Source: Methanobacterium sp. UBA176
GTDB taxonomy: Archaea; Methanobacteriota; Methanobacteria; Methanobacteriales; Methanobacteriaceae
Length of the DNA: 32,000 nt
Assembly (NCBI GenBank): GCA_002505765.1
Contig: DAVZ01000019.1
Span: 1-32,000, forward strand
Reading direction: 5' to 3'
In this document: one piece after another, positions 3,547 to 25,098 of the stretch
Layout of the letters: each line of letters opens with the position of its first letter
Numbering within the stretch: position 1 is the first letter of the stretch
Translations under genes and position numbers: made by a program
The notes under the pieces: model-generated
Seen by the model: only the letters and a program-made list of their open reading frames with translations
What the model was told of the DNA's origin: nothing
Databases searched by the model: none

Positions 3547-3639
3547 TTTAATCAGTGGGAATTTTAATTTAACACCTGGTACAAATATTTTTAAGCTTTT
3601 ACTTAAATAAATAGAATAATAATTTAAAGATTGATTCTC

Positions 3640-4371
3640 ATGCTCATTGTAAAACAGCACGATGGTCCATCAAGGCTTGGTAAATTTGACCAATTAAACA
3701 CTCCTGCAATTTTAAAGTACACAGACCAGTTAGAGATTGTAAAAGACGAACCTATGCCTTACGACGTTCCTAAAGAGCTAGCCCAATGGTCAGTTAATAG
3801 AACAATTGAATTAGCCAATAAAAGCAAAGGCGAGGGAATTGCAGTTATTCAGGGTTCTAAATACATTGATTTAAGAATTAAGTGTGCTGAAAAATTGGAT
3901 CTTATAGGGTATACCACTTTGATGATTGCAAATTCTGAGAAACTGCTTAAAAACCCAAGGAATCTTGTGGATATAGTTGTAAATATAAGAAAAACTGTAA
4001 ATCCCAACGTGGCATTATATTTTCCTTTCATAGATGCTTCATTTATCCCTTTACTTGCTTATATGGGAATAGATTTAGTTGGAGACGTTTCGGCGGGTTA
4101 TTGTACTTATTTGAATAGATTAGTAACTCCTACAGCCATTTATGACCTTGAAGAGTATAAAATCTATGAATTTGGCTTTGATGAGCTTGAATCCTATAAT
4201 AAGCGCACTTTAGATTTTGTTACAAGAGAAATAAGGGAGAATATAAAGAACATGACCTTAAGAAACCTTGTTGAAGAAAGATGCTGCACCTCCCCGGAGG
4301 CTATGTCAGCTCTAAGAATACTCGATAAAAAGTATTCTGACTTTTTAAAAGAGTATACACCTTTATACTAA
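3640..4371 (+). CDS. Short TGT-fold-like protein (tRNA-guanine transglycosylase / archaeosine-synthase N-terminal type); function uncertain
   Basis: The N-terminus HDGPSRLGKF..LNTPAIL resembles the start of archaeal TGT/ArcS proteins, but the ORF is only ~243 aa. The start is moved from the TTG at 3631 to the ATG at 3640. Confidence 0.5.
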   Translation: MLIVKQHDGPSRLGKFDQLNTPAILKYTDQLEIVKDEPMPYDVPKELAQWSVNRTIELANKSKGEGIAVIQGSKYIDLRIKCAEKLDLIGYTTLMIANSEKLLKNPRNLVDIVVNIRKTVNPNVALYFPFIDASFIPLLAYMGIDLVGDVSAGYCTYLNRLVTPTAIYDLEEYKIYEFGFDELESYNKRTLDFVTREIRENIKNMTLRNLVEERCCTSPEAMSALRILDKKYSDFLKEYTPLY

Positions 4372-4878: not shown

Positions 4879-5005
4879 TTAAATACTTTTCTGTAATTCA
4901 TAACATAAAAACTTTCTGTATAGTATGAACATTTTAGTTCAACATTAAATATTTGCTCAAAGTTCTTTTCAACAAATTATTATTTTATAAAATATGATAC
5001 ATATT

Positions 5006-5515
5006 ATGGAAAAAAAAGTTTATGTTCTGGATTCTTCTGCAATAATAGGTGGCTATAATTTCAAGAATTTAGATAACTATACTATAAATGAAGTTATTTC
5101 TGAAATCAAAGACTTTAAATCAGAATTATTATTGCAATCTTCCATTGAAGATGGTCAGATTAAATTAGAACAACCAGATAGGGAAGATCTGGAAAAAGTG
5201 AATCTTGTTACCAGATCTTCTGGAGATATATTAAGGCTTTCTGAAGTCGATAAAAAGGTTATTGCACTTGCATTAAAATTTAAAAGGAAAGGAATAAATC
5301 CTGTAGTGATAACAGATGACTACACCATGCAAAACACGCTTAAAATCGTTGGAATTCCTTATAAAAGTATTTTGACCTCTGGAATTGAAGGAATTCTAAA
5401 CTGGATTAAAGTTTGCAAGGGATGCAAAAAAAGATATCCTCCTGAATATAAATTTGAAGAATGTGAGATATGTGGTTCCAGAATTTTCAAAAAGAAGATA
5501 AAAAAAACAATTTAA
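5006..5515 (+). CDS. nob1: Archaeal Nob1-type endonuclease (PIN domain plus C-terminal zinc ribbon)
   Basis: It has a PIN-like N-terminus (VYVLDSSAIIGG ... VITDDYTMQN). The C-terminal zinc ribbon is CKGC-x14-CEIC. The ~170-aa size is typical of archaeal Nob1. Confidence 0.75.
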   Translation: MEKKVYVLDSSAIIGGYNFKNLDNYTINEVISEIKDFKSELLLQSSIEDGQIKLEQPDREDLEKVNLVTRSSGDILRLSEVDKKVIALALKFKRKGINPVVITDDYTMQNTLKIVGIPYKSILTSGIEGILNWIKVCKGCKKRYPPEYKFEECEICGSRIFKKKIKKTI

Positions 5516-5594
5516 TCAAATTTAGAATCATTAATTTTGAAAATTTTCAATTAAATAGATAATTTTAATAGATATTTAGGTACAACAGTGAATA

Positions 5595-6692
5595 ATGAAA
5601 ATTGGAATTGTTGTGCATGGGCCATTTGTGGTTGATTCTGGTCATGCAGAGGAAATTTTGAATCTATTGAGTAATTATGGAGAAGTAAAAGCCCGTTTAG
5701 GGGGTACTATGGGCAGAACTGCTGTTCATGATGCAGGGCTTGAGGATGAAATTGATATTCGCATGAAGATGCTTCCCAGTCAGTCTGTAGATAAATTTAT
5801 AGAAGAAAAATATGATGTTGTTATATTGATAAACTATGGAAAGTCATCTATCACAGGTCATGCATTCGGATTTAAAGTATTTAGCCATTGTCAGGGTAAT
5901 CCTCCCCTAATACAGATTGAAAGACCCGGAGAAAGAGATGGTAGCATAATACCATGGATTAGCTCGTTGAACGAACTTGCAGAAAGGATATCTAAGGATA
6001 TGAATCTTAAAATTGTTTATCCGCAGGAAATAAAAGAAAAAATGGCTTCTAATAAAGTAAGTGAAATCGAAAGGACCATAGCAGGAGTATCTCCTGGTGA
6101 AAATATATTTGTTAATGGAATTGTCGTAGGAAAATCTATATCCTGTCATGTAACTTTAATTGCAGAGAATGGCTTTATAACTGAAATAAATGGAGCAAAT
6201 ATAAAAGAACATGGAGTGGAAAAACTTGGTAAAATAGACCTACAAACAGCAATAGTAAAAACAGGACTGCTTAGAAGATCCGAAGTCTCACCAAGAATAC
6301 TTAAATCAAATAATAACCACGATAAACTTAAAGTAGCATTTCTAAACCATGCAGCAGAGGATATATATCAATTAAAAAATGCAGACTACGTTGTAACCAT
6401 TGGCGACGATACCACACTTGTTGCAGGTGATATACTCTATAGATTTGACGTTCCTGTAATTGGAATCACCGATGGAGACATTGATAAAGTTGTGGAAAAG
6501 GGATTTAAAACAAAACGATCCTTAATAATTGAGCTTGAAAAGGACTTAGATGACGTAATTGGTGAAAAAATTCATTCTGAACTTTTCAATGGTGAAGAAA
6601 TCATTGAAATAGAAAATATCGAAAATTTTAAAAAGGAAATATTACAGATTATAAACGATATAACCACTTGCTATAAAATAAAAGAAAATTGA
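5595..6692 (+). CDS. Conserved archaeal protein of unknown function, first gene of the marker operon (possibly a DUF2117-type family; not verified)
   Basis: The 365-aa ORF has a GTGA RBS-like motif upstream. It ends 9 nt before the next gene. I recognise no catalytic motif. Confidence 0.7.
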
Positions 6693-6701
6693 GGTGTACA
6701 G

Positions 6702-7700
6702 GTGGATTTAAACCATCTTATTACTTCCCTAAGGAATTTTGAAGGGATTACACGAAAAAATCCAATTAAGAAAATAACCAATATACTGGAAGATACCTAT
6801 AACATCGCTGGAAAAACTGTTTTGAGTTTTGGAGACGATGCATCTGCGCTGGATATTGGAAATGACAAATTGATTCTTCTTGCAGCCGACGGAATGTGGG
6901 GGAAGCTTATGGAAGCTGATCCAAAATGGGCTGGATACTGTTCTGTTTTAGTTAACGTAAACGACATTGCAGCAATGGGCGGCGAGCCAATTGGTATGAC
7001 CAACGTTCTTTCAACCTCTGATGATAAAATACGCGATGAAATACTATTAGGAATTAAAGAAGGAGTTGAAAAATTCGGTGTCCCTATGGTGGGAGGCCAT
7101 TTTCATCCAGATACACCATATAATGCACTGGATGTTTCTATTACTGGGATAGTTGACAAAGATGATATTATAACAAGCTGTAATGCAGAAGCTGGCCATA
7201 AAGTTATAGTTGCAATGGATATCCATGGCCAGATTCATCCAAAATTTAATCTCAACTGGGATACAACAACAATGAAAAGTGCTGCCCTCGTACAGTCTCA
7301 AATTAAGATGATGAATAAAATAGCAAGGGAACATCTTGTAAGTTCTGGAAGGGACATAAGCAATCCAGGAACTCTCGGAACCCTTGGAATGCTTCTTGAA
7401 GCTTCTGATGTAGGAGCATCTGTTGAAATTGAAAAGATTCCCAGAAATGAGAGTATTGAATGGGAGCAATGGCTTAAATTATATCCTGGAGCAGGATTTG
7501 TCTTAACTGCTAAAAAAGAAAACGTGGATAGATGTATAAAATTATTTGAAGAAGTAAATATTAAATCAGCAGTTGTTGGAGAAATTATTAAAGATAAAAA
7601 GCTTTATATAACTTTTAAAAATGAAACAGGAATATTATTCGACTTTGATGACGACGAAATAATGGGCATTAAAGAAGAAAGATCATCTGAGGAGATTTAA
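6702..7700 (+). CDS. AIR-synthase-related (PurM/ThiL/HypE fold) protein; methanogenesis marker protein 2 type
   Basis: The motifs [18 protein letters not shown] and [10 protein letters not shown] are characteristic of the PurM-like ATP-dependent superfamily. It uses a GTG start with GAGGTG upstream. Its stop overlaps the next start by 1 nt. Confidence 0.8.
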
Positions 7701-9235
7701 TGAATGTTAGGGTCAATGGAGAAAAAATAGGCCTTCCTGAAGGTTCAACACTTAGAGATGCCATAGAAACTGCAGAAGCACCCTATATCGAAGGTTGTAT
7801 CCTATCAGTTATAAAGGGCAAAGAAGAAGTTGAAAAATATGTGAACAAATATAAAATAAAAACCAGTAAAGGAAGCATAATAATAGAATTACTGGAAGAT
7901 GGACCTTCAAATCTGGTAGATACATGGAAAAAACGTTATAAAGAGTTTGAAAGTTTAAGAATAAGATGGACCACCTCTAACGAAGTCTCTTTAGGCCCCA
8001 TTAAAACAGATTTAGTTCCTACAAGAGAAGAATATCAATATTTTCCCTGGGAGGTTATAATGAGTCTTTCAGGATTTACTGCAGAATCAACACATATTAT
8101 TTTAAGCAAATCAAAACATGACGGAATTTATGGAGTTCCTGAAGGAAATAGAGGTGTTTTTGCCCGTGTAATAGGGGGTAAAAGAACTGTATTCACCCTT
8201 GCTGACGATGATTTTATAAATGAAATAAAACCCGTGATTGAGCGAAGCAGCACCATTAAAAGCGCTACAACAATTGATTTAAATACCCCAGTTGAAGATG
8301 GAAATGAAATATTTACATACGTCCTTGTTAAGCCAGAATTCAGATCTCCCAGTTCTGTTGAACACTTCTTTGCACTAGCTGAAGAGGGTAAAATAAGAGT
8401 AGATTATGAATCTAATTCATTTATAGGTTTTTACAAGTTGCACGGCCTTGAAAAAAATGCAGAACTAATCGATAAAAGAAGTAGGGGAACAATAACGCTT
8501 CGAAATAAAGGTAAAGGAGTAGGGAAGGTTTATATTTACAGAGAAGATAGAGTATCAGCACCATCACATACTATCGTTGGCCATGTTGAGAAAGGAATGC
8601 AAATACTTGATATAGCAGATACTGGAGATTTAATCACATTCAAATCTAACCCTGAAAGAATAATGACCCTCTCTATGACCCAGAAAGAAGCAGAAGAATA
8701 TTTAACTTCTAAAGGAATAGAACAGATACGCGAAGGCCTTGCTGACGATAGTGCAATAGTAGTGGGTCAAGATCCAGAGTTTACAATGGATATTATACAT
8801 GGCAAAAGAGCATATACTCTGGGAATCGATGAAAATAAAATAATTGAAGTTGAAATTGATGAAAAAGCCCTTAGATCCTCATGGTATTTCAAAAAACTTA
8901 CAGGACTCCTTGATTCTCCGGTAGGATCCCTACAAATACATTTTGCCTTTCCAGGAATGAAGGTAATGATGTTTAAAGGTAGTTCAAAAGATGCTAAAGG
9001 ACTTATTCCTGAGAACATTCCACAAAAATGCGTGAAAACTGGTGAAATAGGAATAACAAACATGTCCCGTAGACAAATTGGAGTAGTGGGAGTAAGATTT
9101 GAAGACAATGATGAATACGGCCCAACTGGAGAACCATTTGGAGGTACCAATATAGTTGGAAGGGTGGTTAAAGGGCTTGAAAATCTTGAAAAGTTAAAAG
9201 AGGGTGAAGTAGTCTATGTCAAAAGAAAAATCTGA
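7700..9235 (+). CDS. UPF0288 / methanogenesis marker protein 3 type (511 aa)
   Basis: The length and the position after the PurM-like gene match the conserved methanogen cluster as I recall it. It is translationally coupled on both sides. The family assignment is from memory and has not been searched. Confidence 0.7.
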
Positions 9236-9647
9236 TGAAGTAACTCGAATGATAATACTCGGACCTTCAGCACAGATAAATTCTTCTGAACTTGTACAGA
9301 AAATCCATATGCTTGAACTTCCCCTTACAATTAAATCAACATGCTATGGAGCAATAATTCATGGCAAAGAAAATGTAGTAAAGGATGCTGTGGAAAAAAT
9401 AAGAAAACTTGATCCCTACAACATCTTTACAAAGGATAGGGGATTCCCTCCAGGAGATCCAAGGCGCTGCAGAGCTAAAAGAGGAGCTGCAAGGGAAGGA
9501 TTTCATCAGCTTGAAAAAGAATTCGAGCTCCTTGATTGTGTAAGGGAGGCACTGGAAAAGCCCAGGGAAGTTCACATTGAAAAACCAATTAAGATTGATC
9601 CTGATTCCTTAAAAAAGATTATTACAGAATGTGAGAATGAAGATTAA
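9216..9647 (+). CDS. Small conserved methanogen protein, probably methanogenesis marker protein 6 type
   Basis: The 143-aa ORF overlaps the upstream gene by 20 nt. It carries the motif [21 protein letters not shown]. The family call is tentative. Confidence 0.6.
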
Positions 9648-9694
9648 ATTAATTTATCAGATTAAAATAACCTAAATTGTCGAGGTATGATAAA

Positions 9695-10069
9695 ATGCAG
9701 ATAACTCCTTTTTCTAAAGGTGAAGAAATAGCACCAATTGCGCTTGCTATTCATGAACTTGTAAACGAACTTCCAACAACAATGCGTTCTAAAAATTCAA
9801 ACGGGGTTAGAATTGAAGATGGAGAGATAATAGATTATAATTATACAGGCCCCGTGTTAGAAAAAGTATTAAACGAAGGTGAAATTATCCATACAATCCC
9901 CGAAACTGGCCCTTATAGCGGCATTCCTGTTATTGTTGTTCCAATTAAAGAAAATGAAGAAGTTATTTGCGTAATAGGGATTGTTGATATAACAAAAGGA
10001 ATATTTAGTGATCTCAAAGAAATAACAAGAAGACCTCAACAAAGAAATCACAGGGGGGAGTTTTATTGA
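9695..10069 (+). CDS. Small conserved archaeal protein of unknown function inside the operon
   Basis: The ATG at 9695 has GAGGT 9 nt upstream; the track's TTG at 9677 is less likely. Its end overlaps the next gene's start by 4 nt. Confidence 0.6.
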
Positions 10070-10512
10070 AAATAGCCATATTTCCTCCAAATTCATTAAT
10101 CTTAGCGGATTTAATTGAAAGAAAAGGACATGAAGCTCTTGCTTTACAAAAAGAAATAAGAAAAAAAGTTATAGATCCAGAGATTGATTCACCGCCATTT
10201 AACATTACAGAAGAAGAACCTATAAAAGGCCTTAAATATGCTGCTATTGAAGTACCATCAGGTGTAAGAGGTAGAATGGCCATATTCGGACCATTAATCG
10301 ATGAAGCCGACGCTGCAATTATAATGGAAGAAGCACCCTATGGATTTGGATGTGTAGGATGTGCAAGGACAAACGAACTATCCATGTACTATTTAAGGAA
10401 GAAAAAAATTCCGATTCTAGAATTGCAGTACCCTACATCAAGAGAAGAAGCAATAGAAATGGTAAACACGATTAACACATTTTTAGATGGACTGGAGGAA
10501 AAAAATGGTTAA
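10066..10512 (+). CDS. Small conserved methanogen protein, probably methanogenesis marker protein 5 type
   Basis: It uses a TTG start preceded by GGGGGAG. The N-terminus [19 protein letters not shown] and the motif [12 protein letters not shown] (CxxC) are present. The family call is from memory. Confidence 0.6.
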
Positions 10513-11734
10513 AATAGCCCAGATATCATGCGGAACAGAGTACAGCGGTATTCAAAAGGAAATTGAAAAAGCTGCTGCAACATTTGGCGCTGAAATTGTT
10601 ATTCCAGAAGCTGATCTGGATTATATTGACGAAGCTTATCATAAATTTGGTTTTAATGTTGCAAGTTCAAGTATAAGACTGATGATAGCCAGAGCCATGT
10701 CCATAGTTGAAGGAAAGGCAGATGCTGACGCTGTATTTATAGGAACATGCTTTAGGTGTGCCGAAGGAGCACTGGTTAGGAACGAGGTAAGACGGTTCAT
10801 ACAACAAAACACAAATTTACCTGTGGTAACCTATTCTTTCACAGAAAGAACTAAAGCAGATGAGCTATTTATAAGAATGGAGGCACTATCTACAATAGTA
10901 GATAGAAAAAGTCTACTTGCACGTGAGAAACAGGAAGGTCTTACCATTGGAATAGACTCGGGTTCAACCACCACAAAAGTCGTTCTAATGGAAAATAATA
11001 GGATAATAGGTACAGGCTGGCTCCCAACCACTGATGTGATCAAATCTGCTGAAGACGGATTGAAAAGTGCATTTGAAGGCACCGGATACAAATTGGATGA
11101 TATTGATGGAATGGGTGTGACCGGTTACGGACGTTTAACTATAGGAAAGCATTACAACGCAGATTTAATCCAGGAAGAACTCAGTGTAAACTCAAAAGGA
11201 GCCGTTTACCTTGCAGACCGTCAAAAAGGTGAAGCTACAGTTCTCGATATTGGGGGGATGGATAACAAAGTAATAACCGTTAACGACGGAATACCTGATA
11301 ATTTCACCATGGGCGGAATTTGTGCTGGAGCATCTGGAAGATTTTTAGAAATAACTGCAAGAAGGCTGGGTGTAGATATAAGTGAACTTGGAGGGCTTGC
11401 TTTAAAAGGAAACTATAAAAATGCACTCCTAAACAGTTACTGTATTGTATTTGGTATTCAGGACCTTGTTACATCCCTTGCTGCTGGAGGTACGAAGGAA
11501 GATGTGGCTTCTGCTGCATGTTATTCAGTAGCCGAGCAGGTTTACGAACAGCAGCTTCAAGAAATTGACGTTAGAGAGCCAATAATACAGGTAGGGGGGA
11601 CATCGCTGATTGAAGGGCTTGTCGAGGCTGTTAGCTCAATTCTCGGAGGAATTGAAGTAATCGTACCTGATAATTCACAACATATAGGTGCTGTTGGCGG
11701 TGCGCTTTTAGTATCCGGTTTGGGTAAAAAATAG
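10505..11734 (+). CDS. ASKHA (BadF/BadG/BcrA/BcrD-type) ATPase; methanogenesis marker protein 15 type
   Basis: The phosphate-binding motifs [14 protein letters not shown] and [12 protein letters not shown] are present, and the N-terminal domain has CFRC. The ATG at 10505 has GGAGG upstream and overlaps the upstream stop by 8 nt. Confidence 0.8.
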
Positions 11735-11743
11735 GAGAGTAAA

Positions 11744-12292
11744 ATGTTAGTTGAATGCTACGATAAAAGTGGTGCTGAAGTCTATGAAATGATAATAAAG
11801 CAGATAATGCAGGATGTTCAGATCGGCCGTGCTATTAGTGATATGAAAGTGTTTGTAGACCCAAGAGAGCCTGTATTCATTATTGCAGTTAAGTATGAAA
11901 AAGCAGCATCTCCAATTACAATTGACGATTTTACAGAATACGAATATAAAAAAGAAGAAAATAAAACAAGAATAAGAGTTAAAGATGAGACTTATTTACC
12001 TGATTTACTTCAAAAACTCTGGGAAACAGAAGGTAGAGAAAAAATAGAACAGCCAAGCAGATTTGAAATTGTGATAAATGATCCACAATTAGATCTAAAG
12101 GGAATGATTATTCACGACCCTTCAGAAGACCTAAAAAAGAAGATTTATGATGCCATTTTCAGAATAATTCCCGAAGGATTTAAGGTTGTTGATCACAAGT
12201 CAAAGGACAGTATAATTTCCATGTTATGTTCTGACGAGATAATTAAAGATGAATGGATTAAAAAAAGAGATAAGATGATTAAGGAATTATAA
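11744..12292 (+). CDS. 182-aa conserved methanogen protein, probably methanogenesis marker protein 17 type
   Basis: GGAGAG sits 4 nt upstream of the ATG. The size and the position after the ASKHA ATPase fit the conserved cluster. The family call is tentative. Confidence 0.6.
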   Translation: MLVECYDKSGAEVYEMIIKQIMQDVQIGRAISDMKVFVDPREPVFIIAVKYEKAASPITIDDFTEYEYKKEENKTRIRVKDETYLPDLLQKLWETEGREKIEQPSRFEIVINDPQLDLKGMIIHDPSEDLKKKIYDAIFRIIPEGFKVVDHKSKDSIISMLCSDEIIKDEWIKKRDKMIKEL

Positions 12293-12311
12293 GGATGAAA
12301 GAAGTTTGAGG

Positions 12312-13172
12312 ATGAATAAAATGAAAGAAAGCAAATTTGCCCATATGACAAAGGTGCATCCATGTTTCAACGAGAAAATGCACGATAAAGTTGGAAGAAT
12401 CCACGTTCCTATCGCCCCTAAATGCAATATTCAGTGTAATTTCTGTACAAGAGATATAAATAAATGTGAAATGAGACCAGGAGTATCATCCAGAGTTATG
12501 AATGTAGACGATGCTATAGAACATGTAAGGAAAGTTACAGCAGAAATGCCCATATCTGTCGTCGGTGTTGCCGGTCCGGGAGACGCTCTCTTTAATGAAG
12601 AGACATTTGAGTTTTTTAAAAGAGTTGATGAGGAATTCCCTGATCTGATAAAATGTATGAGTACTAACGGGCTTCTTTTACCTGATAAGGCAGATTTACT
12701 GGCTGAATTAAAGATAAACACCATAACAGTAACTGTAAATGCAATCGATCCAGAGATCGGAAAAGAAATCTATGCTGGAGTTTTCTATGATGGAAAGATT
12801 TACAGAGGCAAAGAAGGATTTGAAATACTCTCCAAAAATCAGCTTGAAGGGATAGAAAAGATATCAGAGAAGGGAATCGTTGTTAAAGTTAACGCAGTTC
12901 TAATTCCAGGATTAAATGATAATCACATTGTGAATATAGCTAGAGAGGTTAAAAAAAGAGGCGCTTCTTTGATGAACGTCATTCCATTAATACCCCTTAA
13001 CAAGTTTAAAGACTTAGAGAAACCGAGCTGTGCAGAAATTAGCAAAGTGAGAGACGAAGTCGAGGAAATAATTCCGGTCTTTAGAGCATGCAGTCAGTGC
13101 AGAGCTGATGCATATGGAGTTCCTGGTAAAAAGGACAAGCACCTTGATATGACTCCAATGAGTCATTATTAA
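12312..13172 (+). CDS. nifB: NifB-type radical SAM protein (stand-alone SAM domain, no NifX-like extension)
   Basis: HVPIAPKCNIQCNFCTRDINKCE closely matches the NifB signature around the CxxxCxxC radical SAM motif. The ~287-aa size is like the minimal methanogen NifB proteins. The start could be 12306, 12312 or 12321. Confidence 0.7.
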   Translation: MNKMKESKFAHMTKVHPCFNEKMHDKVGRIHVPIAPKCNIQCNFCTRDINKCEMRPGVSSRVMNVDDAIEHVRKVTAEMPISVVGVAGPGDALFNEETFEFFKRVDEEFPDLIKCMSTNGLLLPDKADLLAELKINTITVTVNAIDPEIGKEIYAGVFYDGKIYRGKEGFEILSKNQLEGIEKISEKGIVVKVNAVLIPGLNDNHIVNIAREVKKRGASLMNVIPLIPLNKFKDLEKPSCAEISKVRDEVEEIIPVFRACSQCRADAYGVPGKKDKHLDMTPMSHY

Positions 13173-13214
13173 ACCTTTTTTATTTTAAATCATATATTAA
13201 TCAAGGTAATTAAC

Positions 13215-14144
13215 ATGAAAACAATGTACTGGAAGGATAATCACCTTTTTTTATTGGATCAAACTGAACTACCTGATGAAATTACTTATTTTGAATGTAA
13301 AACCTACAAAGATGTTATTCATGCCATAAAAACCATGAAAGTGCGGGGCGCTCCAGCAATTGGAGTTGCAGCAGCCTTTGGAATGGCACTTGCTGAACTA
13401 GCTGGAGAAGACCTGCAAAAGGCAGGAGATGAAATTAAAGCTGCAAGGCCTACAGCAGTGAATCTCTTCTGGGCAGTTGATAGAGTATTTAATTCAGATA
13501 ATGTACTTGATGAGGCTTTAAAAATGTATGATGAAGATATAGAAACTAATAAAGCCATTGGAAAATACGGTTCAACTGTAATTGATAATGGAGACACCAT
13601 ATTAACACATTGTAATGCAGGTGCGCTGGCCTGTGTAGATTATGGAACGGCTTTAGGTGTAATAAGGGCTGCGTTCCATGAAGGCAAAAAAATAAAGGTC
13701 ATATGCGATGAAACACGACCATTTTGTCAGGGTGCAAGGCTCAGTGTCTTTGAGATGCAGCAGGAAAACATTCCAGTTAAGTTAATTGTAGATAGCGCAG
13801 CAGGGCGCATGATGCAAGCTGGAAAAGTCAGTAAAGTTATTGTAGGGGCAGATAGGGTTGCTAAAGGTGGAGTTGCAAATAAGATAGGTACACTAATGGT
13901 TGCACTTGCTGCAAAAAGGTTCAACATCCCATTTTATGTTGCAGCGCCAAAAAGTACATTTGACTTTGAAAATTCGATTTATGATACTGAAATAGAAGAA
14001 AGAGAACCTGATGAAGTGCTGTATTTTGGAGAATGTCGTGTTGCACCAGAAGGAACAGAAGTAGAGAATCCTTCATTTGATATTGTGCCTGGTGATCTGA
14101 TTACAGGGATAATCACTGAAGAAGGAATTTTAGAGCCGTTTTAA
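13215..14144 (+). CDS. MtnA / aIF-2B-related sugar-phosphate isomerase (methylthioribose-1-phosphate isomerase family)
   Basis: The N-terminus LFLLDQTELP...AIKTMKVRGAPAIGVAAAFG is diagnostic of the MtnA-type branch of the eIF-2B alpha/beta/delta family. Confidence 0.8.
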   Translation: MKTMYWKDNHLFLLDQTELPDEITYFECKTYKDVIHAIKTMKVRGAPAIGVAAAFGMALAELAGEDLQKAGDEIKAARPTAVNLFWAVDRVFNSDNVLDEALKMYDEDIETNKAIGKYGSTVIDNGDTILTHCNAGALACVDYGTALGVIRAAFHEGKKIKVICDETRPFCQGARLSVFEMQQENIPVKLIVDSAAGRMMQAGKVSKVIVGADRVAKGGVANKIGTLMVALAAKRFNIPFYVAAPKSTFDFENSIYDTEIEEREPDEVLYFGECRVAPEGTEVENPSFDIVPGDLITGIITEEGILEPF

Positions 14145-16741: not shown

Positions 16742-17770
16742 TCAAACACGATCATCTTTCTCAAAATTTGAAAAAATATTTTTATTAATATTTTCCATAT
16801 CCGGGAACGGAAAAACATGGCCAACACCATCTAACCACAAACCTTTTGCATTTGGTATTATTTCTGCGAGTTTCCTTCCATGTTCTACAGGAATAATTGA
16901 ATCATCCATGCCGTGAATTACCAGGGTCGGTGCATTGAGTGTCTTTAATTTTTCATAGCGTGAGCCTGAAATGCTAACAGCAGTTTGATGCTGAAATATC
17001 GCCTTAATATTAATGCCCCTTCGTTTTCGAAGATTATAAAGAACTATCTCTGCTATTTCTTTGATGTCTAACTCTTCAGACCCCACAAATGCAATTGTTT
17101 TAGCAATGCGTTCTTTAATCAGATTTTTCTCGCCACCAATTAAACGGTACTTCAGTAATGGAATACCCTTCAAAATAGAATTAAGGAAATAACGTGACGA
17201 TAAGCCGGGAAGATCAGGGTCTCCAACATATCCTGATGTCATCATTAACGTAAGCGACCCAATTCGGTCCGGATAATTAATAGCAATTTCCTGTGCTATC
17301 ATTCCACCCATAGAAAGACCTACGATGTGGACCTTCTGAATTTTAAGCGTATCTAATACTGCAACAGCATCCCCTGCCATATCTACCAACGAATAAGAGT
17401 TCTTTCTGTTCCAATCTTCAACCCAGTCAGACATTCCCGTCCCTCTTTGATCGTAGCGAATTACCTGATATCCTGAATCAACAAATGCACGAACAAATTT
17501 AGGAGGCCAATCCAGAGCATTGCCCGCCAGTCCCATAATAAGCAGAACAGTTTCTTTCGACGAACCTTCAGGAGAAATACATTCATACCAGATATTCAAG
17601 CCATCTGATGATGCAAAACCAGTCTTGCCACCAATAACTTCAGGTAATTTACTATTTAAGACATTTTCGATTATTTCATTAGTTTCAGGTGGTAGTTTTG
17701 GTCCAGATATGTAGATATATATTAAAATAATTACCAATAGAATTAAAAAGATTGTAATAGGTAAAATCAT
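16742..17770 (-). CDS. Membrane-anchored alpha/beta hydrolase
   Basis: An N-terminal TM helix (ILPITIFLILLVIILIYIYI) is followed by the nucleophile elbow GLSMGG. C-terminal HG..D...P and GH motifs are typical of the fold. Confidence 0.8.
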   Translation of the reverse strand: MILPITIFLILLVIILIYIYISGPKLPPETNEIIENVLNSKLPEVIGGKTGFASSDGLNIWYECISPEGSSKETVLLIMGLAGNALDWPPKFVRAFVDSGYQVIRYDQRGTGMSDWVEDWNRKNSYSLVDMAGDAVAVLDTLKIQKVHIVGLSMGGMIAQEIAINYPDRIGSLTLMMTSGYVGDPDLPGLSSRYFLNSILKGIPLLKYRLIGGEKNLIKERIAKTIAFVGSEELDIKEIAEIVLYNLRKRRGINIKAIFQHQTAVSISGSRYEKLKTLNAPTLVIHGMDDSIIPVEHGRKLAEIIPNAKGLWLDGVGHVFPFPDMENINKNIFSNFEKDDRV

Positions 17771-17839
17771 ATTATTTCATCTCCTAAAAAAGAGATTAGT
17801 AATTTATTGTTATGTTTTATAATATCTGCCTTTTTTAGT

Positions 17840-18616
17840 CTATTCAAAAAATCCCTTTGGCGTTTCTCCTTCGAGGAAAGGTTCGATGAAAGCGATTAAA
17901 AGATCGGTCTGAGTAATGACAGCCGTATGCGATGTTGCCGGCATAACTGCCAAGCGCGAAGCCGATAACGGATTACCCATATCACCCATAATACCACCAC
18001 CAAGCAACCGAAACATAGCTATCGTATGTTCGAGCGTCGCACCGTCTGCATCACCAGCAATGATCAGTACAGGGGTTTTCAATTTTTTAACATCTTCTTC
18101 CAATGCCATCGGCTCCTTCTCGAGAGCTATCAGCTTCTCCACAAGTGCAGGAAACCCATCGGGATTAGGGGCAAGCTTACGATAGTCTAGAGCGAATGGC
18201 ATATTGAGAAACATTTCTACAGTCATTTGCGGAATGAAGTTCTTGAACTCCGGCTGCCAACCTTCAATATCATAAGCGCCTGAGCAAGATATAAGTTTAT
18301 TTACCTTCTCCGGATGACGGATGGCAAGTTGTAGTCCAGTTATAGCGCCCATGGAATAACCGAATACATCAGCTTTCTTAAGACCTATCGCGTCCATAAA
18401 AGCAGCTACATCATCTGCCAGGTTCGGATAGGTGATGGGGCGGTCAATGTCAGTGGTCCGACCATGGCCCTGGAATTCGAGTGCATAGACCTTGTGGGTC
18501 CTACTGAGTTTGGGGATTATTTCTCCCATTGATATTATGTTCATATAAGCACCGTGCAATACGATTAGTGGATCGCCCTTGCCGGAGACTTCATAATACA
18601 TTTTCATTCCGTTCAC
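17840..18616 (-). CDS. Alpha/beta hydrolase
   Basis: It has PLIVLHG, the nucleophile elbow GYSMGA and a C-terminal SH. It uses a GTG start with AAGGT upstream. The gene is G+C-rich relative to its flanks. Confidence 0.8.
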   Translation of the reverse strand: MNGMKMYYEVSGKGDPLIVLHGAYMNIISMGEIIPKLSRTHKVYALEFQGHGRTTDIDRPITYPNLADDVAAFMDAIGLKKADVFGYSMGAITGLQLAIRHPEKVNKLISCSGAYDIEGWQPEFKNFIPQMTVEMFLNMPFALDYRKLAPNPDGFPALVEKLIALEKEPMALEEDVKKLKTPVLIIAGDADGATLEHTIAMFRLLGGGIMGDMGNPLSASRLAVMPATSHTAVITQTDLLIAFIEPFLEGETPKGFFE

Positions 18617-18749
18617 GGATGCGTAATTACCTTTGCTTTTTATTAAAATTCCCCCTTATTTTCTCTTTCAATTTAATTTTCTTCCATATCAAAGTCTAAA
18701 AGCCACAATACCAATTTTATTGCTTATATTCGCCTATCTTGATAATTTA

Positions 18750-19826
18750 TTAAATCAAGACTGCAGAAATTTCTACAAACTCACTATATCGATTAACCTC
18801 TGATTCTACTGCTTCTTGCTCATCTTTGCTGAATTTACGAAAAGGATTTAGCCTGATTTCAACTCTATTTCTCTTCAAAGATTTATTCCAGGTGCCTGCC
18901 ACTTTACCATCTAAAATAATAACTGCATTTAAAGCATTACCCATTGAAATCATTCTTTCAATATCTCGCGCTTCACTGATATCTCCCCTGTCTTTATAAG
19001 CAATTGTGTATTCATCATAAATTGATAATAATAATGCAGATGGCGACTTTGGTGTTTTTACCTTTATATAGTCAAAAAACCAATATGTCTTGCCATCATG
19101 AGTTGATTGATTTAATTTTGATTTAATTAAGTTGAGGGCGTCTCTTGCATCTCTAATGGTGAGTCCTGACCACCATGAAAAGTCCTTCAGTTGAGCTGGG
19201 CCGTGACTTTTAAAATAGTTGATTATAAGTTTAGTAAGAGCTTGTTCCCAGCTTAACTTTTTTGCTTTTTTCACTCTTTCTTCCAGAAGTGCATAGGTAA
19301 ACTGTTTTCCACGCCTTGGTCCGCTGCAAATCAATCCATCTAATTCTGCCTGCATGATAATGTGAGCCAGACGTTGAATGTCTGTATTGATACCTATTTC
19401 TTCTAATACGGTTTTAAGCTCTTGTCGAGTAAGATATGTATGATCTCGTAACGCTTTGACGATTGCAGCATTACTTTTAGCAAACAACATATCATCAAGT
19501 TCAAGTTTTCGATTATAAGACTTAAGAACAGTTTTTACTCGGGGTGCAGTTAACTCAAGCATCCAGCGGATATTCTCTGGGGTGATAAAATGCCATGTAG
19601 GGCGCATTACATGAGTGCGCAAGATTTTACCTTCATTGAAAGCGTTTTCAATTTTTTCATCAGTTGAATTTTTAATACGAAGCCCAAGCGCCCATTTAGC
19701 AGCGGCAAAGTCCTGTGCCTGAACTGCACCTAAATGTGAAACCGCATCCGATGCAGTTTTAAAGGGAGAATTGACTAAACCGCTGTTATAAAGACGTAAT
19801 TTTGTAATTTCTGCAGCATTCATCAT
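18750..19826 (-). CDS. Winged-helix DNA-binding protein of the AlkZ/YcaQ (HTH_42) family; putative DNA glycosylase
   Basis: The 358-aa size matches the family. The N-terminal region is HLGAVQAQDFAAAKWAL, containing a Q-x-Q/D motif like the catalytic motif I recall for AlkZ/YcaQ. The assignment is by recollection. Confidence 0.6.
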   Translation of the reverse strand: MMNAAEITKLRLYNSGLVNSPFKTASDAVSHLGAVQAQDFAAAKWALGLRIKNSTDEKIENAFNEGKILRTHVMRPTWHFITPENIRWMLELTAPRVKTVLKSYNRKLELDDMLFAKSNAAIVKALRDHTYLTRQELKTVLEEIGINTDIQRLAHIIMQAELDGLICSGPRRGKQFTYALLEERVKKAKKLSWEQALTKLIINYFKSHGPAQLKDFSWWSGLTIRDARDALNLIKSKLNQSTHDGKTYWFFDYIKVKTPKSPSALLLSIYDEYTIAYKDRGDISEARDIERMISMGNALNAVIILDGKVAGTWNKSLKRNRVEIRLNPFRKFSKDEQEAVESEVNRYSEFVEISAVLI

Positions 19827-19858
19827 CTAACCTTTATCATGCTTAGTATCCATGCATA

Positions 19859-20458
19859 TCAAATCTGTCTAAAAAGCATTGAAAAATCCACCAGCAGCCC
19901 ATCGTCATCCACCACAATGTCAAAAATAAAATCGGCAGCTCTACATCTTGATAACGATAGGTTCGCTCATCTATCTTACTGTAAATTTGCTGAAGTCGCC
20001 GTAGGGAAACTGTCAAAATTTTAAATTTTGACGCAGCAAAAATCTACGATTTTTGCCAGACTTATTCTCGTCAAAATAGATCATGTCGACTTTCTGTGGT
20101 TCTCCATCAAAGCGCAGTTGTTTGATTGGCAGCGTATTTGTGATGAAATGGAGATATCTACCATCTCTACGCCATCAAACTCTGACAAGAGCTGGCCCTT
20201 GCCATCATACCACTGATAGTCCTTATGCACGAGATTAATCTCTCTTTCACCCAATAATGACTTAATAGATACTTCCTTAATTTGCCAATCCATAGTCAAT
20301 GCCAGATAATACTCTACAGCAAACGGAATATCCTGGTCGGTTTTACCCACCGCCAGTCCATGACCATAGACACCATCATCTACCATGTGCCGATGAATCA
20401 CCATGCTTGGCCAGGACAATGCCTGCCAGACAATCGTTCGCGTTTTATTCGCTGGCAT
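19859..20458 (-). pseudogene. Frameshifted glycolipid-binding-domain (DUF1089-like) gene
   Basis: Frame 1 runs from 20458 to a stop at 20081. The family-like segment FITNTLPIKQLRF...VDMIYFDE continues in a second frame from about 20150. QQIYSKIDERTYRYQ lies in a third frame. FIFDIVVDDDGLLVDFSMLFRQI ends at the stop at 19859-19861. The total of about 200 codons matches the family length. Confidence 0.7.
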
Positions 20459-20597
20459 ATTCTATGCCTCATTTAAAGATGTCTGAAAAACTTCGGCAAT
20501 GTTCCTTTTGATTATCTTGTTCATCTGCTTTCTAAAAATTATTTTCCTCATTTGTTTTCCCACTTCCATTCTTGGTATCCGATTTTGTAATGCTCCT

Positions 20598-21758
20598 TTA
20601 CGTTTCCCGGAATTCGCGGAAGAAATCACGTAGATCCTTGGCCAGCAACTCTGGAACTTCCATGGCCGGGAAATGGCCGCCCTGTCTGAATTCACTCCAG
20701 TGCGGCAATTGATTCTCTGGATCTTGTAAGGCACGCGCGGTGCTTTTAGCTCCAAAGACAGCCATACCCACAGGGGCAAACGATGGCCGGCTCCAGTCTC
20801 GCTGCAAGTGTAGGTTATTGTAGAGAAAGCCGGCAGCCGAAGCGCCACTCATAGTAAACCAGTACAGGCTGATGATAGTGAGCATTTGGTTCAGGTCTAC
20901 AGTTTCTTCAGGTAGCTTATCGCCGTTATCGGTCCACATTTTGAATTTTTCAACAATCCAGGCGAGCTGGCCAACCGGTGAGTCATTCAACAAGTAACCG
21001 ATAGTTAACGGGCGAGTTTTTTGGATTGCAAGATAACCCCCGTCTTCGTCGACTTTTTGGGCGATTTCCTGAATTTCCCTCTTCTCAAGTGTTCGGAATT
21101 TTGGATTCTTAGCAGGGTTGTTGCCCATAAACTTGATATACCAGACGATGGAAGGCATGTCAGCACTGACATGTACGCCAACCAAGTTTTTGTCAATGTG
21201 ATTAATCTCACCGGCAATATCCGAGCCAATATCACCACCATGAACACCCCATCGCTCATAACCCAATTCTTTCATTAGTTGGCTGTAAGCTTTGGCAGTT
21301 CGGATGGCGTGCCAGTGCTCCTTAACAGGGGAAGACAAACCGAAACCAGGGGTAGTTGGTAGGACAACATGGAATGCATCTTCGGCCTTACCACCATGAG
21401 CGACAGGATCTGTTAGAGGGTCGATCATTTTTACAAATTCGATGTTCGAACTCGGCCAACCGTGCAGAAGCATCAGCGGCATGGCATTGGTTTCCTTGGA
21501 TTTGACATGGAAGAAGTGGATAGGTTGGGCACCGATTTCGGCTACAAATTGGTCGTACTTATTGAGCCAGTCTTCCTGCTTTCGCCAATCAAACTTGTGT
21601 TGCCAGTAGTTCGTTAGTTTTTTTAGATAGGCTGGCGGCACACCTCGGTCCCAGCCCAAATCTTTGATTTCATTGGGCCAACGCGTGTTTTCAAGGCGCT
21701 CCCTCAGATCATCAAGCTGCACCTGCGCTATATTGATTTTGTAGGGTTTTATTATCAT
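20598..21758 (-). CDS. Epoxide hydrolase (alpha/beta fold with EH N-terminal domain)
   Basis: The N-terminus is IKPYKINIAQVQLDDLRERLENTRWPNE. It has the HGWP oxyanion motif (LLHGWPSS) and the Asp nucleophile elbow GGDIGS. The ATG at 21758 has GGAGAG 4 nt upstream. Confidence 0.85.
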   Translation of the reverse strand: MIIKPYKINIAQVQLDDLRERLENTRWPNEIKDLGWDRGVPPAYLKKLTNYWQHKFDWRKQEDWLNKYDQFVAEIGAQPIHFFHVKSKETNAMPLMLLHGWPSSNIEFVKMIDPLTDPVAHGGKAEDAFHVVLPTTPGFGLSSPVKEHWHAIRTAKAYSQLMKELGYERWGVHGGDIGSDIAGEINHIDKNLVGVHVSADMPSIVWYIKFMGNNPAKNPKFRTLEKREIQEIAQKVDEDGGYLAIQKTRPLTIGYLLNDSPVGQLAWIVEKFKMWTDNGDKLPEETVDLNQMLTIISLYWFTMSGASAAGFLYNNLHLQRDWSRPSFAPVGMAVFGAKSTARALQDPENQLPHWSEFRQGGHFPAMEVPELLAKDLRDFFREFRET

Positions 21759-21821
21759 AGAACTCTCCATTGTCAAAGCTTCCTAGACAACCTTCCTGTT
21801 TTATCCATTTTATCCAATTCC

Positions 21822-22280
21822 TTATTTTTCCGCAAGCTTTTTTAATTTATTTAGAGCTTTAGGCCAGATTTTCTCGGACATCTCTATCATTTCCTGGTTT
21901 ACAACATCTGAAGACAGATCCACCAGAAGTTCAGTTTTACCATCCACATCCTTAAATGTGTAATTTTCAAGTGATCCGGCCCACTCTTTAGCTTCCTGGC
22001 TTGATGTATCCTCTTCGCCGTTATATACAATACCCACATGTTTAATGGAGACATATTCGTATTTACGGTTCTCCTTTATTCGGCTTACCATTCCAGACAT
22101 TTGTCCTGACTCATCAGGTGCGAGGAACAGTATCTTACTTCCCTCGCTCCAGTCACCGTCGTAGGTTGAACCAGGCATGAAAACGTCTGTCCATTTTTCA
22201 TAGGTATCCTTATCAAGCATGGTCTTCCAGACATTTTCTTTAGGTGCATTTATAACGATTGAAAATTGCATTTTTTCCAT
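21822..22280 (-). CDS. SRPBCC / AHSA1-like small protein (paralog 1)
   Basis: The ATG at 22280 (MEKMQFSIVINAPKENVW) is preceded by AGGAGG. It is very similar to the ORF at 23288-23737. Confidence 0.85.
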   Translation of the reverse strand: MEKMQFSIVINAPKENVWKTMLDKDTYEKWTDVFMPGSTYDGDWSEGSKILFLAPDESGQMSGMVSRIKENRKYEYVSIKHVGIVYNGEEDTSSQEAKEWAGSLENYTFKDVDGKTELLVDLSSDVVNQEMIEMSEKIWPKALNKLKKLAEK

Positions 22281-22296
22281 AAATTTTTCCTCCTTT

Positions 22297-22757
22297 TTAT
22301 TTTTCCACCAATTCTTTGAGCTTTTGCAGGGCCTTACGCCACATATCCTGGTACATTTCCTTATAATCATCTGGTACATCCATAACTGGAGTTAAATCCA
22401 CCAGCACTTCAGTCTTGCCATCTATCTCTTTAAAGGTGTAGTTTTCAAGCGCACCAGCGTATACCGTCGCCTGTTTGCTTGTAGTATCTTCTTTCCCATC
22501 TTGCACCATACCAATATTTTCCATGGAGACGAATTCGTACGGCCGATTTTCTTTTATCCGAAACACCGACCCGGAAATTTTACCCGACTCATCAGGTGCA
22601 AGGAAAAGTATCTTACTTCCCTCACTCCAATCACCCTCGAATATGAACCTGGCATAAACACATCGGTCCACAGGGGGTAGGTGTCCTTACCAAGCAGTAC
22701 TTCCCATACTTTTTGTTTAGGCGCATCTACAACTATTGAAAAATGTAGTTTTTCCAT
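22297..22757 (-). pseudogene. SRPBCC / AHSA1-like paralog 2, interrupted by a 1-nt frameshift
   Basis: MEKLHFSIVVDAPKQKVW...DVFMPGSY (frame of ORF 22554-22808) continues as FEGDWSEGSKILFLAPDE (frame of ORF 22297-22671). The join at about 22640-22645 reads tcatattcgag, where the paralogs imply one extra base. Confidence 0.75.
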
Positions 22758-22794
22758 AAAATCACACCATTCCATTGAAATATCCTTAAATTGA

Positions 22795-23271
22795 CTATAT
22801 TCCCTCATAAGCCTGCTTTAACTTCTCTACATCCAGTTTATTCATCTGCATCATGGCCTGCATTACTCTCTGGGATTTTTCCTCATCCGGATCGCTTAGA
22901 TACTCTCCTAAAATGGTGGGCACGATCTGCCAGGCCAGGCCAAATTTATCCTTAACCCAGCCCGGTCCCAGTTCCATTCCTCCATCTGAGAGCTTCTCCC
23001 ACAACTCATCCACCTCTTCCTGGGTATCGCAGTTTACAAACAACGATATGGCTTCTGTAAACTTGAACTGTGGATTACCATTTAATGCGTGAAATTCCTG
23101 TCCTTCGAGCTGGAAGGTCACCCACATAACCGATCCTGCGGGATCGGGTCCGGCTTCTCCGTATCGCACGGTATTCAGTATTTTCGAATTTTTAAAGATG
23201 GAGGTATAGAGATTAGCTGCCTCAAGAGCTTTACCATCTTCAAACCATAAGAATGGTACGATCTTTTGCAT
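22795..23271 (-). CDS. VOC-superfamily protein (PhnB / 3-demethylubiquinone-9 3-methyltransferase-domain type)
   Basis: The N-terminus [24 protein letters not shown] and the segment [15 protein letters not shown] are typical of this family. Confidence 0.75.
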
Positions 23272-23287
23272 TTAAATTCGCTCCTTA

Positions 23288-23737: not shown

Positions 23738-23809
23738 ATTTCTTCCTCCTTTGTTTAAATATTTACAATAAAAATTATCTTTACTCTAAAAAAGGAATAG
23801 AGTTCAAAA

Positions 23810-24352: not shown

Positions 24353-24377
24353 TTGAATCTTAACATGACTTTAATTT

Positions 24378-24866
<489 letters not shown>

Positions 24867-25098
24867 ATTCTTCACCTTTCTGTCTTTAACAACACTCCAG
24901 CATCTGTATAAACCTCAAGGCTCTGCCTTGGTTGCCTGATTATACTGGATAGTTTAACTACGTTATTGATATGTAGTTTTAAAATAATAAATGTTTCATT
25001 ATTTGTAATAAAAATTTGGCGCTATTTGAGATAAGTCTATATTAATTCAGTAAAAAAGGAATAAAGAGAAATTTAATCCCTAAAAAATATTTTTTGAT

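Follow-up and report, generated by a model that had tools for sequence, protein, structure and literature searches.

A Methanobacterium copy of the mmp–nifB gene cluster and its probable part in activating methyl-coenzyme M reductase

We analysed a 32,000-nucleotide stretch of Methanobacterium sp. UBA176 (contig DAVZ01000019.1, positions 1 to 32,000; hereafter the window, to which all unlabelled coordinates refer) that carries genes for methanogenesis marker proteins (Mmps) followed by a gene for the radical S-adenosylmethionine (SAM) enzyme NifB. The locus is best explained as the Methanobacteriaceae form of the known methyl-coenzyme M reductase (MCR) activation, or mmp, cluster, comprising nine genes with an mtnA-like gene behind them that has signals of its own; in this cluster NifB would provide L-type iron-sulfur clusters and Mmp15 would lead the delivery of electrons. 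We put the probability of this composite reading at about 0.7. Both the locus and the NifB hypothesis are already known, the window holding the Methanobacterium copy of a published cluster, and for the field it is another example with a few refinements rather than a discovery. It nevertheless bears on an important reaction: MCR yields nearly all biological methane, and how its nickel cofactor is reduced in the cell is only now being resolved. Here one unit gathers two scaffold subunits of the activating complex, the builder of its unusual clusters and six conserved proteins of no assigned role.

Gene content and layout

An earlier note, made from the sequence alone, had described ten co-directional genes in this region with four start/stop overlaps and gaps of 47 nt or less. 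That description is reproduced: ten forward-strand open reading frames (ORFs) occupy the positions it listed (5595-14144) in the order DUF2117, Mmp2, Mmp3, Mmp6, DUF2111, Mmp5, Mmp15, Mmp17, NifB and MtnA-like. When the starts best backed by Shine-Dalgarno-like motifs are used, the successive junctions are +9, -1, -20, +47, -4, -8, +9, +13 to +28 and +42 nt, giving four overlaps and a largest gap of 47 nt. Family assignment with the hidden Markov models (HMMs) of NCBIfam and Pfam, a check that the note itself had proposed, placed all six marker families (Mmp2, 3, 5, 6, 15 and 17) above their curated NCBIfam cut-offs (Table 1), and its gene identities are correct. The first gene, which it had left unassigned, and the 124-aa gene belong to the Pfam families DUF2117 and DUF2111.

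Mmp5, Mmp6 and Mmp15 form one co-directional block with Mmp2, with junctions between -20 and +47 nt. The sole ambiguous start is that of mmp6, which may lie at 9216 or at an alternative ATG at 9249. The N-terminal extension gained from the upstream start (MS.E....VTR, leading up to the alternative Met) is kept in 59 of 74 orthologous loci, which makes the start at 9216, and with it the 20-nt overlap, plausible. DUF2111 starts at ATG 9695 with GAGGT before it, and GGAGG precedes the Mmp15 start at 10505.

Subunits of the MCR activation complex

Two of the encoded proteins match a complex of solved structure from Methanococcus maripaludis. Mmp3 aligns over its full length with chain J of PDB entries 8S7V/9H1L (E = 4.8e-104) and Mmp17 with chain G of 8S7V (E = 1.1e-23). 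By homology, both are scaffold subunits of the assembly by which the nickel of F430 in MCR is reduced to Ni(I), a placement that the note had also given for both families. In the M. maripaludis work, McrC was purified together with Mmp7, Mmp17, Mmp3, component A2 and DUF2098, the last a small 10.6-kDa subunit bound by McrC, and the preparation activated MCR in an ATP-dependent manner (Ramirez-Amador et al. 2025, Nature; PMC12176620). The same study reports that the complex holds three [8Fe-9S-C]-like (L-type) clusters and that it is active with Ti(III) citrate and not with dithiothreitol (DTT), for which reason extra Mmps are presumed to be needed for physiological activation. A 2026 Chem Rev review names McrC and Mmp7, rather than Mmp3 or Mmp17, as the subunits that ligate the clusters, each of which needs just two protein ligands (PMC13474568). 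Genes for McrC, Mmp7, A2 (AtwA) and DUF2098 were not found among the ORFs of the window, and Mmp2, Mmp5, Mmp6 and Mmp15 are, conversely, not part of the purified complex.

A minimal archaeal NifB

The note's NifB-like radical SAM enzyme proved to be a true NifB. It matches the NifB of Methanothermobacter thermautotrophicus (MtNifB; PDB 7JMB/7BI7) over its full length at ~80% identity (E = 1e-149), all cysteines in the printed alignment are matched, the Cx3Cx2C motif is present as C35-x3-C39-x2-C42, and the cysteines are invariant in 67 orthologues, in keeping with the Cys/His ligands of the K1 and K2 clusters of NifB. Its score against TIGR01290 falls below the cut-off (Table 1) because the protein has no NifX-like domain at its C-terminus and so covers only model positions 4-281 of 441. 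MtNifB (288-290 aa), whose structure is known, has no such domain either. We detected no sequence-level difference from the minimal archaeal NifB type, represented by MtNifB and by the Methanothrix protein (6Y1X). Activity of MtNifB was reported by Fay et al. 2015, as cited in PMC12176620, and the ~80% identity suggests that the window protein would also form NifB-co, the L-cluster, from [4Fe-4S] units and SAM. All methanogens carry NifB, which is essential to them (bioRxiv 10.1101/2023.10.20.563283), and the enzyme probably takes part in forming the iron-sulfur clusters of the activation complex (PMC12176620).

Conservation of the cluster

When one genome per species was scanned, 80 loci were recovered, all from Methanobacteriaceae and with Mmp3 identities of 52-84%, the closest species-level genome being that of Methanobacterium sp. 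UBA44 (84%). In every sufficiently long contig from these genomes the gene order of the window recurs, preceded by a gene for a PIN-domain protein (PIN-DUF2117-Mmp2-Mmp3-Mmp6-DUF2111-Mmp5-Mmp15-Mmp17-NifB-MtnA), the only departures being contig ends or split ORFs. The same order was found in 67 further metagenome contigs, giving ~150 Methanobacteriaceae loci in all, and the arrangement is far beyond chance. Coupling is tightest in the stretch Mmp6-DUF2111-Mmp5-Mmp15-Mmp17, where median overlaps are 4-8 nt and the genes overlap in 51-75% of species. The Mmp17-NifB junction is intermediate (median gap 29 nt, overlap in 39% of species), and at the loose nifB-mtnA junction the two genes stand a median of 95 nt apart, with zero overlaps. 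Mean identity to the window protein within the family is highest for Mmp15 (87%), Mmp5 (82%), MtnA (80%) and NifB (79%).

Low-GC (0.25-0.37) Methanobrevibacter-like clusters form a variant (contigs L129, L136, L143-L145, L150, L153, L157 and L162-L164). They lack DUF2111 between mmp6 and mmp5 and carry an extra 0.3-0.7 kb between mmp17 and nifB, and their mtnA lies 1-4 kb beyond nifB.

For distant Mmp3 loci, the genome scan gave only Methanobacteriaceae. To offset this limit, a second alignment headed by M. maripaludis Mmp17, its sequence taken from the PDB alignment, was used to scan metagenome contigs. Thirteen loci in Methanococcales-like contigs (L094-L106) encode an Mmp17 that is 53-67% identical to that of M. 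maripaludis. Seven of the thirteen have a NifB orthologue, scoring 335-354 bits against the window protein, on the opposite strand 280-660 nt downstream of mmp17, in convergent orientation; L105 (5974-7890), for example, reads ilvB-ilvN-ilvC-mmp17 followed by a convergent ACT-nifB-U32 block. Two others have mmp15 upstream of mmp17. In M. maripaludis the extra mmp genes are widely dispersed (PMC12176620), and the finding of mmp17 and nifB as neighbours in a second order with dispersed mmp genes counts against pure phylogenetic inertia. The physical link between marker genes and nifB is therefore conserved, both within the Methanobacteriaceae and in the Methanococcales-like neighbourhood.

Probable boundaries of the transcription unit

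Signals consistent with a promoter and a terminator bracket nine of the ten genes. In 30 of 72 related loci the 100 nt before DUF2117 contain the motif ATAATT[AT]TAA, whose median distance to the start is 36.5 nt; the background rate is 0.005 per 100 nt, and the window copy is at 5559. Runs of at least five T within 60 nt of the stop codon follow nifB in 55 of 67 loci, mtnA in 41 of 64 and the upstream PIN gene in 31 of 68, and follow each of the eight internal genes in 0-14% of cases (mmp17 in 6 of 68). In the window itself a T6 run at 13176 succeeds the nifB stop, and a TATA-like TTTAAAT comes next at 13184, which leaves ~30 nt to the mtnA start. Since the conserved promoter-like motif and the T-run pattern enclose nine genes, they suggest a unit that starts with DUF2117, ends with nifB and has a conserved promoter and an oligo-T terminator of its own, with mtnA probably a separate or read-through gene. 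The note's inclusion of mtnA as the tenth gene of the same operon is accordingly the part of its layout that we would revise. Co-transcription of the nine genes is hinted at indirectly, by the gene overlaps, the TATA-like box and the T runs that are frequent after nifB and rare after internal genes.

Table 1. Features of the cluster in the window (aa, amino acids; HMM scores in bits, with curated cut-offs where available)
Feature	Position	Strand	Score or remark
TATA-box-like element ATAATTTTAAT	5559..5569	+	36 nt before DUF2117; putative promoter
DUF2117 protein, 365 aa, first gene	5595..6692	+	PF09890 454.5
Mmp2, 332 aa, PurM/ThiL/SelD/HypE-superfamily ATP-utilising enzyme	6702..7700	+	TIGR03267 489.2 (cut-off 365)
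Mmp3, 511 aa, by homology a structural subunit of the activation complex	7700..9235	+	TIGR03268 659.8 (cut-off 234)
Mmp6 / DUF2102, 143 aa (132 aa from 9249)	9216..9647	+	TIGR03272 167.5 (cut-off 125.95)
DUF2111 protein, 124 aa, predicted PAS/Cache/GAF-like fold	9695..10069	+	PF09884 123.9
Mmp5 / DUF2112, 148 aa	10066..10512	+	TIGR03271 243.3 (cut-off 140)
Mmp15, 409 aa, N-terminal Cys domain and HgdC/BcrA-type ASKHA ATPase	10505..11734	+	TIGR03286 747.6 (cut-off 456)
Mmp17, 182 aa, by homology a subunit of the activation complex	11744..12292	+	TIGR03291 221.2 (cut-off 67)
Minimal archaeal NifB, 283 aa	12321..13172	+	ORF opens with TTG at 12306; TIGR01290 307.9 (cut-off 343.65)
Oligo-T run, archaeal terminator-like, directly 3' of the nifB stop	13176..13181	+	putative termination
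MtnA-like 5-methylthioribose / 5-deoxyribose 1-phosphate isomerase, 309 aa	13215..14144	+	TIGR00524 385.4 (cut-off 185.85), TIGR00512 367.8 (cut-off 279)

Mmp15, Mmp5, Mmp6 and Mmp2

Mmp15 has the ATPase domain of the HgdC/BcrA-type ATP-dependent electron injectors (PF01869, BcrAD_BadFG, 244 bits; TIGR00241, 340 bits). Its residues 147-403 align with HadI (4EHT), with HgdC (1HUX) and with MbdQ/P, which are subunits of a benzoyl-CoA-type reductase, and C273 and C313 align with the two corresponding cysteines of 4EHT, a pair that we take to be ligands of the inter-subunit [4Fe-4S] cluster. The protein thus shares the ASKHA fold and both bridging-cluster cysteines with the HgdC/HadI activators and the BcrA/D-type ATPase subunits ("archerases"). 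It differs from them in an additional 145-residue N-terminal domain with three invariant cysteines (C9 and C82-x-x-C85), for which no relatives were detectable, including by hhalign against the cluster proteins. All five residues (C9, C82, C85, C273 and C313) are 100% conserved in 72 orthologues.

Mmp5 has an invariant H22 and C96-x-x-C99. Mmp6, to which the note had attributed a single Cys, has two invariant cysteines instead (C32 and C74), together with H20 and H86 (numbering from 9249). Mmp2 contains AIRS (PF00586, 85 bits) and AIRS_C (PF02769, 73 bits) domains and invariant C80, H133 and H135; its nearest PDB relatives are ThiL, PurL and SelD, and it appears to be a distinct PurM subfamily because none of the specific equivalog models is reached. 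No meaningful match to PDB sequences was obtained for Mmp5, Mmp6, DUF2111 or DUF2117. An hhalign all-versus-all comparison of the Mmp15 N-terminal domain, Mmp5, Mmp6, DUF2111, Mmp17, DUF2117, Mmp2 and Mmp3 likewise gave no hidden homology, with all probabilities below 3%.

DUF2117 and DUF2111

DUF2117 matched no NCBIfam model and no PDB sequence. Its AlphaFold2 model (mean predicted local distance difference test score, pLDDT, 87.7) has three domains with no significant PDB fold match, and the protein has invariant H8, H89, H206 and H252 and no conserved Cys. The family is small (261 representatives at 50% clustering). Outside the Methanobacteriales it occurs in the Methanosarcinales (Methanohalobium, Methanohalophilus, Methanothrix, Methanoperedenaceae and Methermicoccaceae), in Ca. 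Methanolliviera and in metagenome-assembled genomes labelled Thermoprotei and Hadesarchaea. In two contigs the DUF2117 start overlaps the stop of a DUF2098 gene, by 4 nt in a Methanothrix contig (L086, 9627-11053) and by 17 nt in an unassigned one (L090, 7760-9086). This coupling provides an independent, if thin, link of DUF2117 to MCR activation.

DUF2117 was also considered as a universal member of the mmp cluster, a candidate role that we rejected, as ten contexts outside the Methanobacteriales have no Mmp neighbours. In a Methermicoccaceae contig, a radical SAM gene beside DUF2117 was examined as a possible nifB and set aside, since the protein is 26% identical and matches in the generic radical SAM core only. 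One further context is odd for a supposedly methanogenesis-linked protein: in L088 (8001-9670), DUF2117 lies inside a ribosomal-protein/SecY/Cbf5 cluster, overlapping a 199-aa gene without family, and the cluster to which this DUF2117 belongs includes Hadesarchaea-labelled sequences.

For DUF2111, a Foldseek search with the AlphaFold2 model (pLDDT 84.2) returned the sensor domains of WalK, Tlp3 and Mlp24 with a probability of 1.0, a template-modelling score of ~0.5 and an E value of only 6e-3. The fold may be PAS/Cache/GAF-like.

The MtnA-like protein

Both isomerase models exceed their cut-offs (Table 1). The best PDB match is a 5-methylthioribose 1-phosphate (M1P) isomerase (1T9K, E = 1.6e-97), with ribose-1,5-bisphosphate isomerase at E = 1.4e-35, and the protein is nearer to M1P isomerase than to either ribose-1,5-bisphosphate isomerase or eIF2B. 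5'-Deoxyadenosine is a by-product of radical SAM enzymes. Recycling of the sugar phosphate derived from it has been proposed for Methanocaldococcus jannaschii (PMC6079011), and the MtnA-like protein plausibly serves this purpose. Its link to the operon is loose.

Relation to described clusters and to the nitrogenase pathway

In Methanothermobacter marburgensis, further Mmp genes are clustered at MTBMA_c04360-c04410 and "followed by nifB" (PMC12176620). This cluster, also from the Methanobacteriales, has the same order, the same marker families and nifB directly downstream, and the window contains another species' copy of it. The published notes on M. marburgensis list only the markers and nifB; they omit DUF2117 in first position, DUF2111 in the core, the promoter and terminator signals and mtnA. 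A2 is absent there too, so that A2 is not a defining member of the Methanobacteriales form. A 2015 thesis (Woermann 2015), in the part relayed by PMC12978539, refers to a "large cluster" of "MMPs-2, 3, 5, 6, 15 and 17", and in Methanomicrobiales and Methanotrichales mmp2 adjoins mtxX outside the cluster (PMC12978539).

Methanosarcina acetivorans has a constitutively expressed "MCR activation operon" made up of A2, Mmp5, 6, 17, 7, 3 and 15, in which deletion of A2 gave zero viable transformants and a clean deletion of the other six genes was never obtained (bioRxiv 10.64898/2026.03.18.712670). The window shares Mmp3, 5, 6, 15 and 17 with this operon; it lacks A2 and Mmp7 and has DUF2117, Mmp2, DUF2111 and NifB in addition. 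The DUF2117 gene of Methanosarcinales sits elsewhere in the genome, apart from the operon.

The nitrogenase cofactor pathway (NifB, NifX/NafY, and NifEN with NifH) resembles the proposed system in starting from the [8Fe-9S-C] product of NifB and in using an ATP-dependent iron-sulfur reductase. It differs in that the locus has no homologue of NifEN, NifX, NafY or NifH, in that the clients McrC and Mmp7 are unrelated to NifDK, and in that no heterometal or homocitrate step is implied for the window system.

Our additions to the published picture are modest: they comprise the boundaries of a nine-gene unit, two members that had not been listed (DUF2117 and DUF2111), the coupling of DUF2117 to DUF2098 and the cross-order neighbourhood of mmp17 and nifB. 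The predicted PAS/GAF-like fold of DUF2111 is a further small point.

Proposed mechanism

In the mechanism that we favour, NifB, as a radical SAM maker of [8Fe-9S-C] L-type clusters of the type seen in the activation complex, would supply these clusters, and it may be kept beside mmp17 since its main client in methanogens would be that complex. Mmp15 would work as a dimer that, like HgdC and BcrA, uses ATP to inject one electron at a time. With the help of Mmp6 and Mmp5, which bear Cys/His residues and are tightly coupled to it, and of DUF2111 where present, it would feed low-potential electrons into the surface-exposed cluster at the Mmp7/Mmp17 interface. Nitrogenase offers an analogy for a wider role: NifH, its ATP-dependent reductase, also acts in cluster maturation, and Mmp15 may similarly aid reductive cluster loading. 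Mmp2 would perform an ATP-dependent activation step, DUF2117 may be an accessory factor tied to the DUF2098 subunit, and MtnA, loosely associated, could recycle sugar phosphates derived from 5'-deoxyadenosine or methylthioadenosine. Electron delivery is favoured because of the homology of Mmp15, the existence of a Methanosarcina operon that has these genes and no nifB, the tight coupling of mmp15 to mmp17 and the failure of the complex with DTT.

A more specific version of this proposal can be offered only tentatively, and we hold it to be on the doubtful side: the core Mmp6-DUF2111-Mmp5-Mmp15 might constitute an as yet unseen ATP-driven reductase module that docks at Mmp17/Mmp7, with DUF2117, a family outside the recognised markers, acting together with DUF2098. 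If this were true, electrons would physiologically enter the L-cluster wire through this module, which would correspond in function to NifH or HgdC, and with DUF2117 it would complete the parts list of the MCR-activating machinery. The locus offers a natural expression cassette for the reconstitution of physiological activation, for heterologous production of MCR and for inhibitor design.

Alternative explanations

Alternatively, the genes other than mmp3 and mmp17 could encode a dedicated biogenesis line that stands outside the working cycle of the complex, with NifB making the L-cluster, Mmp5 and Mmp6 carrying it in the manner of NifX/NafY, and Mmp15 and Mmp2 giving ATP-dependent reduction or activation for its insertion into McrC and Mmp7. 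The dual action of NifH would fit such a line as well. It is favoured by the nifB linkage (co-directional with and near mmp17, at the intermediate spacing given above), by the membership of Mmp2 in the superfamily of the maturation enzyme HypE, and by the in vitro activity of the purified complex without these proteins, which is what maturation factors would show. Mmp5 and Mmp6 each have two to four invariant Cys/His residues, and the L-clusters of the complex require only two protein ligands apiece (PMC13474568). However, the M. acetivorans genes mmp5, mmp6 and mmp15 cluster with A2, mmp7, mmp3 and mmp17, whereas nifB is treated as a separate essential gene; the characterised relatives of Mmp15 are all electron injectors for catalytic partners, not insertases; inactivity with DTT suggests that an electron-input module is absent from the purified complex; and none of these proteins showed homology to NifX, NafY or NifEN. 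We therefore regard a pure biogenesis line as unlikely, though worth serious consideration. By analogy with nitrogenase, where NifH does both, electron delivery and cluster assembly would not be exclusive.

It is rather improbable that Mmp2, DUF2117 and DUF2111 serve some other step of MCR biogenesis, such as an as yet unassigned post-translational modification of McrA, or F430 handling, and share the cluster only through regulation in common with MCR maturation. The PurM superfamily to which Mmp2 belongs activates carbonyl or phosphate acceptors, mmp2 stands off-cluster beside mtxX in two orders (PMC12978539), DUF2111 has a predicted small-ligand-binding PAS/GAF-like fold, and DUF2117 lacks conserved Cys, all of which would suit a function unrelated to iron-sulfur clusters. 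Direct evidence for such a function is nil, though, and the tight packing with subunits of the activation complex in ~150 loci and the coupling of DUF2117 to DUF2098 in two other lineages argue otherwise. Still harder to credit is the idea that the adjacency of nifB and mtnA is a historical accident of one family and that NifB serves nitrogenase only, with no functional tie to the marker genes. In favour of this idea, numerous Methanobacterium species fix nitrogen, no order but the Methanobacteriales is documented to have the co-directional arrangement, and mtnA has terminator and promoter signals of its own. Yet the mmp17-nifB neighbourhood recurs in Methanococcales-like contigs with the other mmp genes dispersed, T runs are rare after mmp17 and common after nifB, NifB is universal and essential also in methanogens without nitrogenase, and the activation complex itself contains L-type clusters. 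A nitrogenase-only NifB thus seems very improbable.

Several observations weigh against the composite reading itself. The cluster-binding subunits McrC and Mmp7 are encoded outside the window, and the Methanococcales-like nifB-mmp17 pair is convergent and not co-transcribed. The promoter and terminator assignments rest on sequence motifs only. No experiment assigns an activity to Mmp2, Mmp5, Mmp6, Mmp15, DUF2111 or DUF2117, and the M. maripaludis complex, as purified, needs none of these six proteins to activate MCR in vitro (PMC12176620). Moreover, A2 is itself an ATPase, with Mmp15 discussed as a candidate, possibly transient, ATPase partner (bioRxiv 10.64898/2026.03.18.712670). Because the complex works without the extra Mmps and A2 is an ATPase, the existing data do not require Mmp15 to be an electron injector. 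In ten contexts outside the Methanobacteriales DUF2117 was never found beside Mmp genes, and it has turned up among ribosomal genes in a Hadesarchaea-like cluster, and DUF2111 is missing from the cluster of low-GC relatives.

The earlier note had proposed that the operon forms an assembly and insertion line for an unusual iron-sulfur cluster. What stands of this proposal are the gene identities, the two complex subunits, the true NifB and its linkage to the marker genes. The casting of the remaining genes as such a line is not supported as stated: Mmp15 fits electron injection at least as well as insertion, DUF2117 is unlinked to Mmp genes in the ten contexts from outside the Methanobacteriales, DUF2111 can be missing, and mtnA is apparently separate.

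Neighbouring genes and the rest of the window

The cluster is flanked directly upstream by the PIN/Zn-ribbon gene and downstream by a convergent gene for the pseudomurein ligase pMurD1; further upstream lie hdrCB, a CDP-alcohol phosphatidyltransferase gene and an ArcS-like fragment. The PIN gene (4994-5515, forward strand) encodes a PIN-domain and Zn-ribbon protein of the PRK12496 family with four invariant cysteines and is found directly upstream in 68 related loci. T runs and the promoter-like box stand between it and the cluster, and a functional link is not evident. The ArcS-like ORF (3631-4371, forward strand, 246 aa) matches only the N-terminal half of archaeosine synthase ArcS and the TGT family, with a score of 89 bits where the cut-off is 440, and is followed by a 620-nt stretch without an ORF of at least 50 aa; the gene may be truncated or split.

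Rfam and tRNA scans of the window found nothing. A D12-class N6-adenine DNA methyltransferase gene at 27659-28594 (forward strand) lies beside a gene of the tetrapyrrole-methylase family, and no restriction enzyme was recognisable among the neighbouring ORFs that were scanned. On the reverse strand, the block at 16742-24875 stands out by a G+C content of 0.38-0.45, compared with 0.27-0.37 in the surrounding DNA. The block has genes for two alpha/beta hydrolases and an epoxide-hydrolase-like protein, for an AlkZ-like DNA glycosylase and three AHSA1/SRPBCC proteins, and for one DUF1697 and one 3-demethylubiquinone-methyltransferase-like (PF06983) protein, and looks like an accessory or horizontally acquired island.

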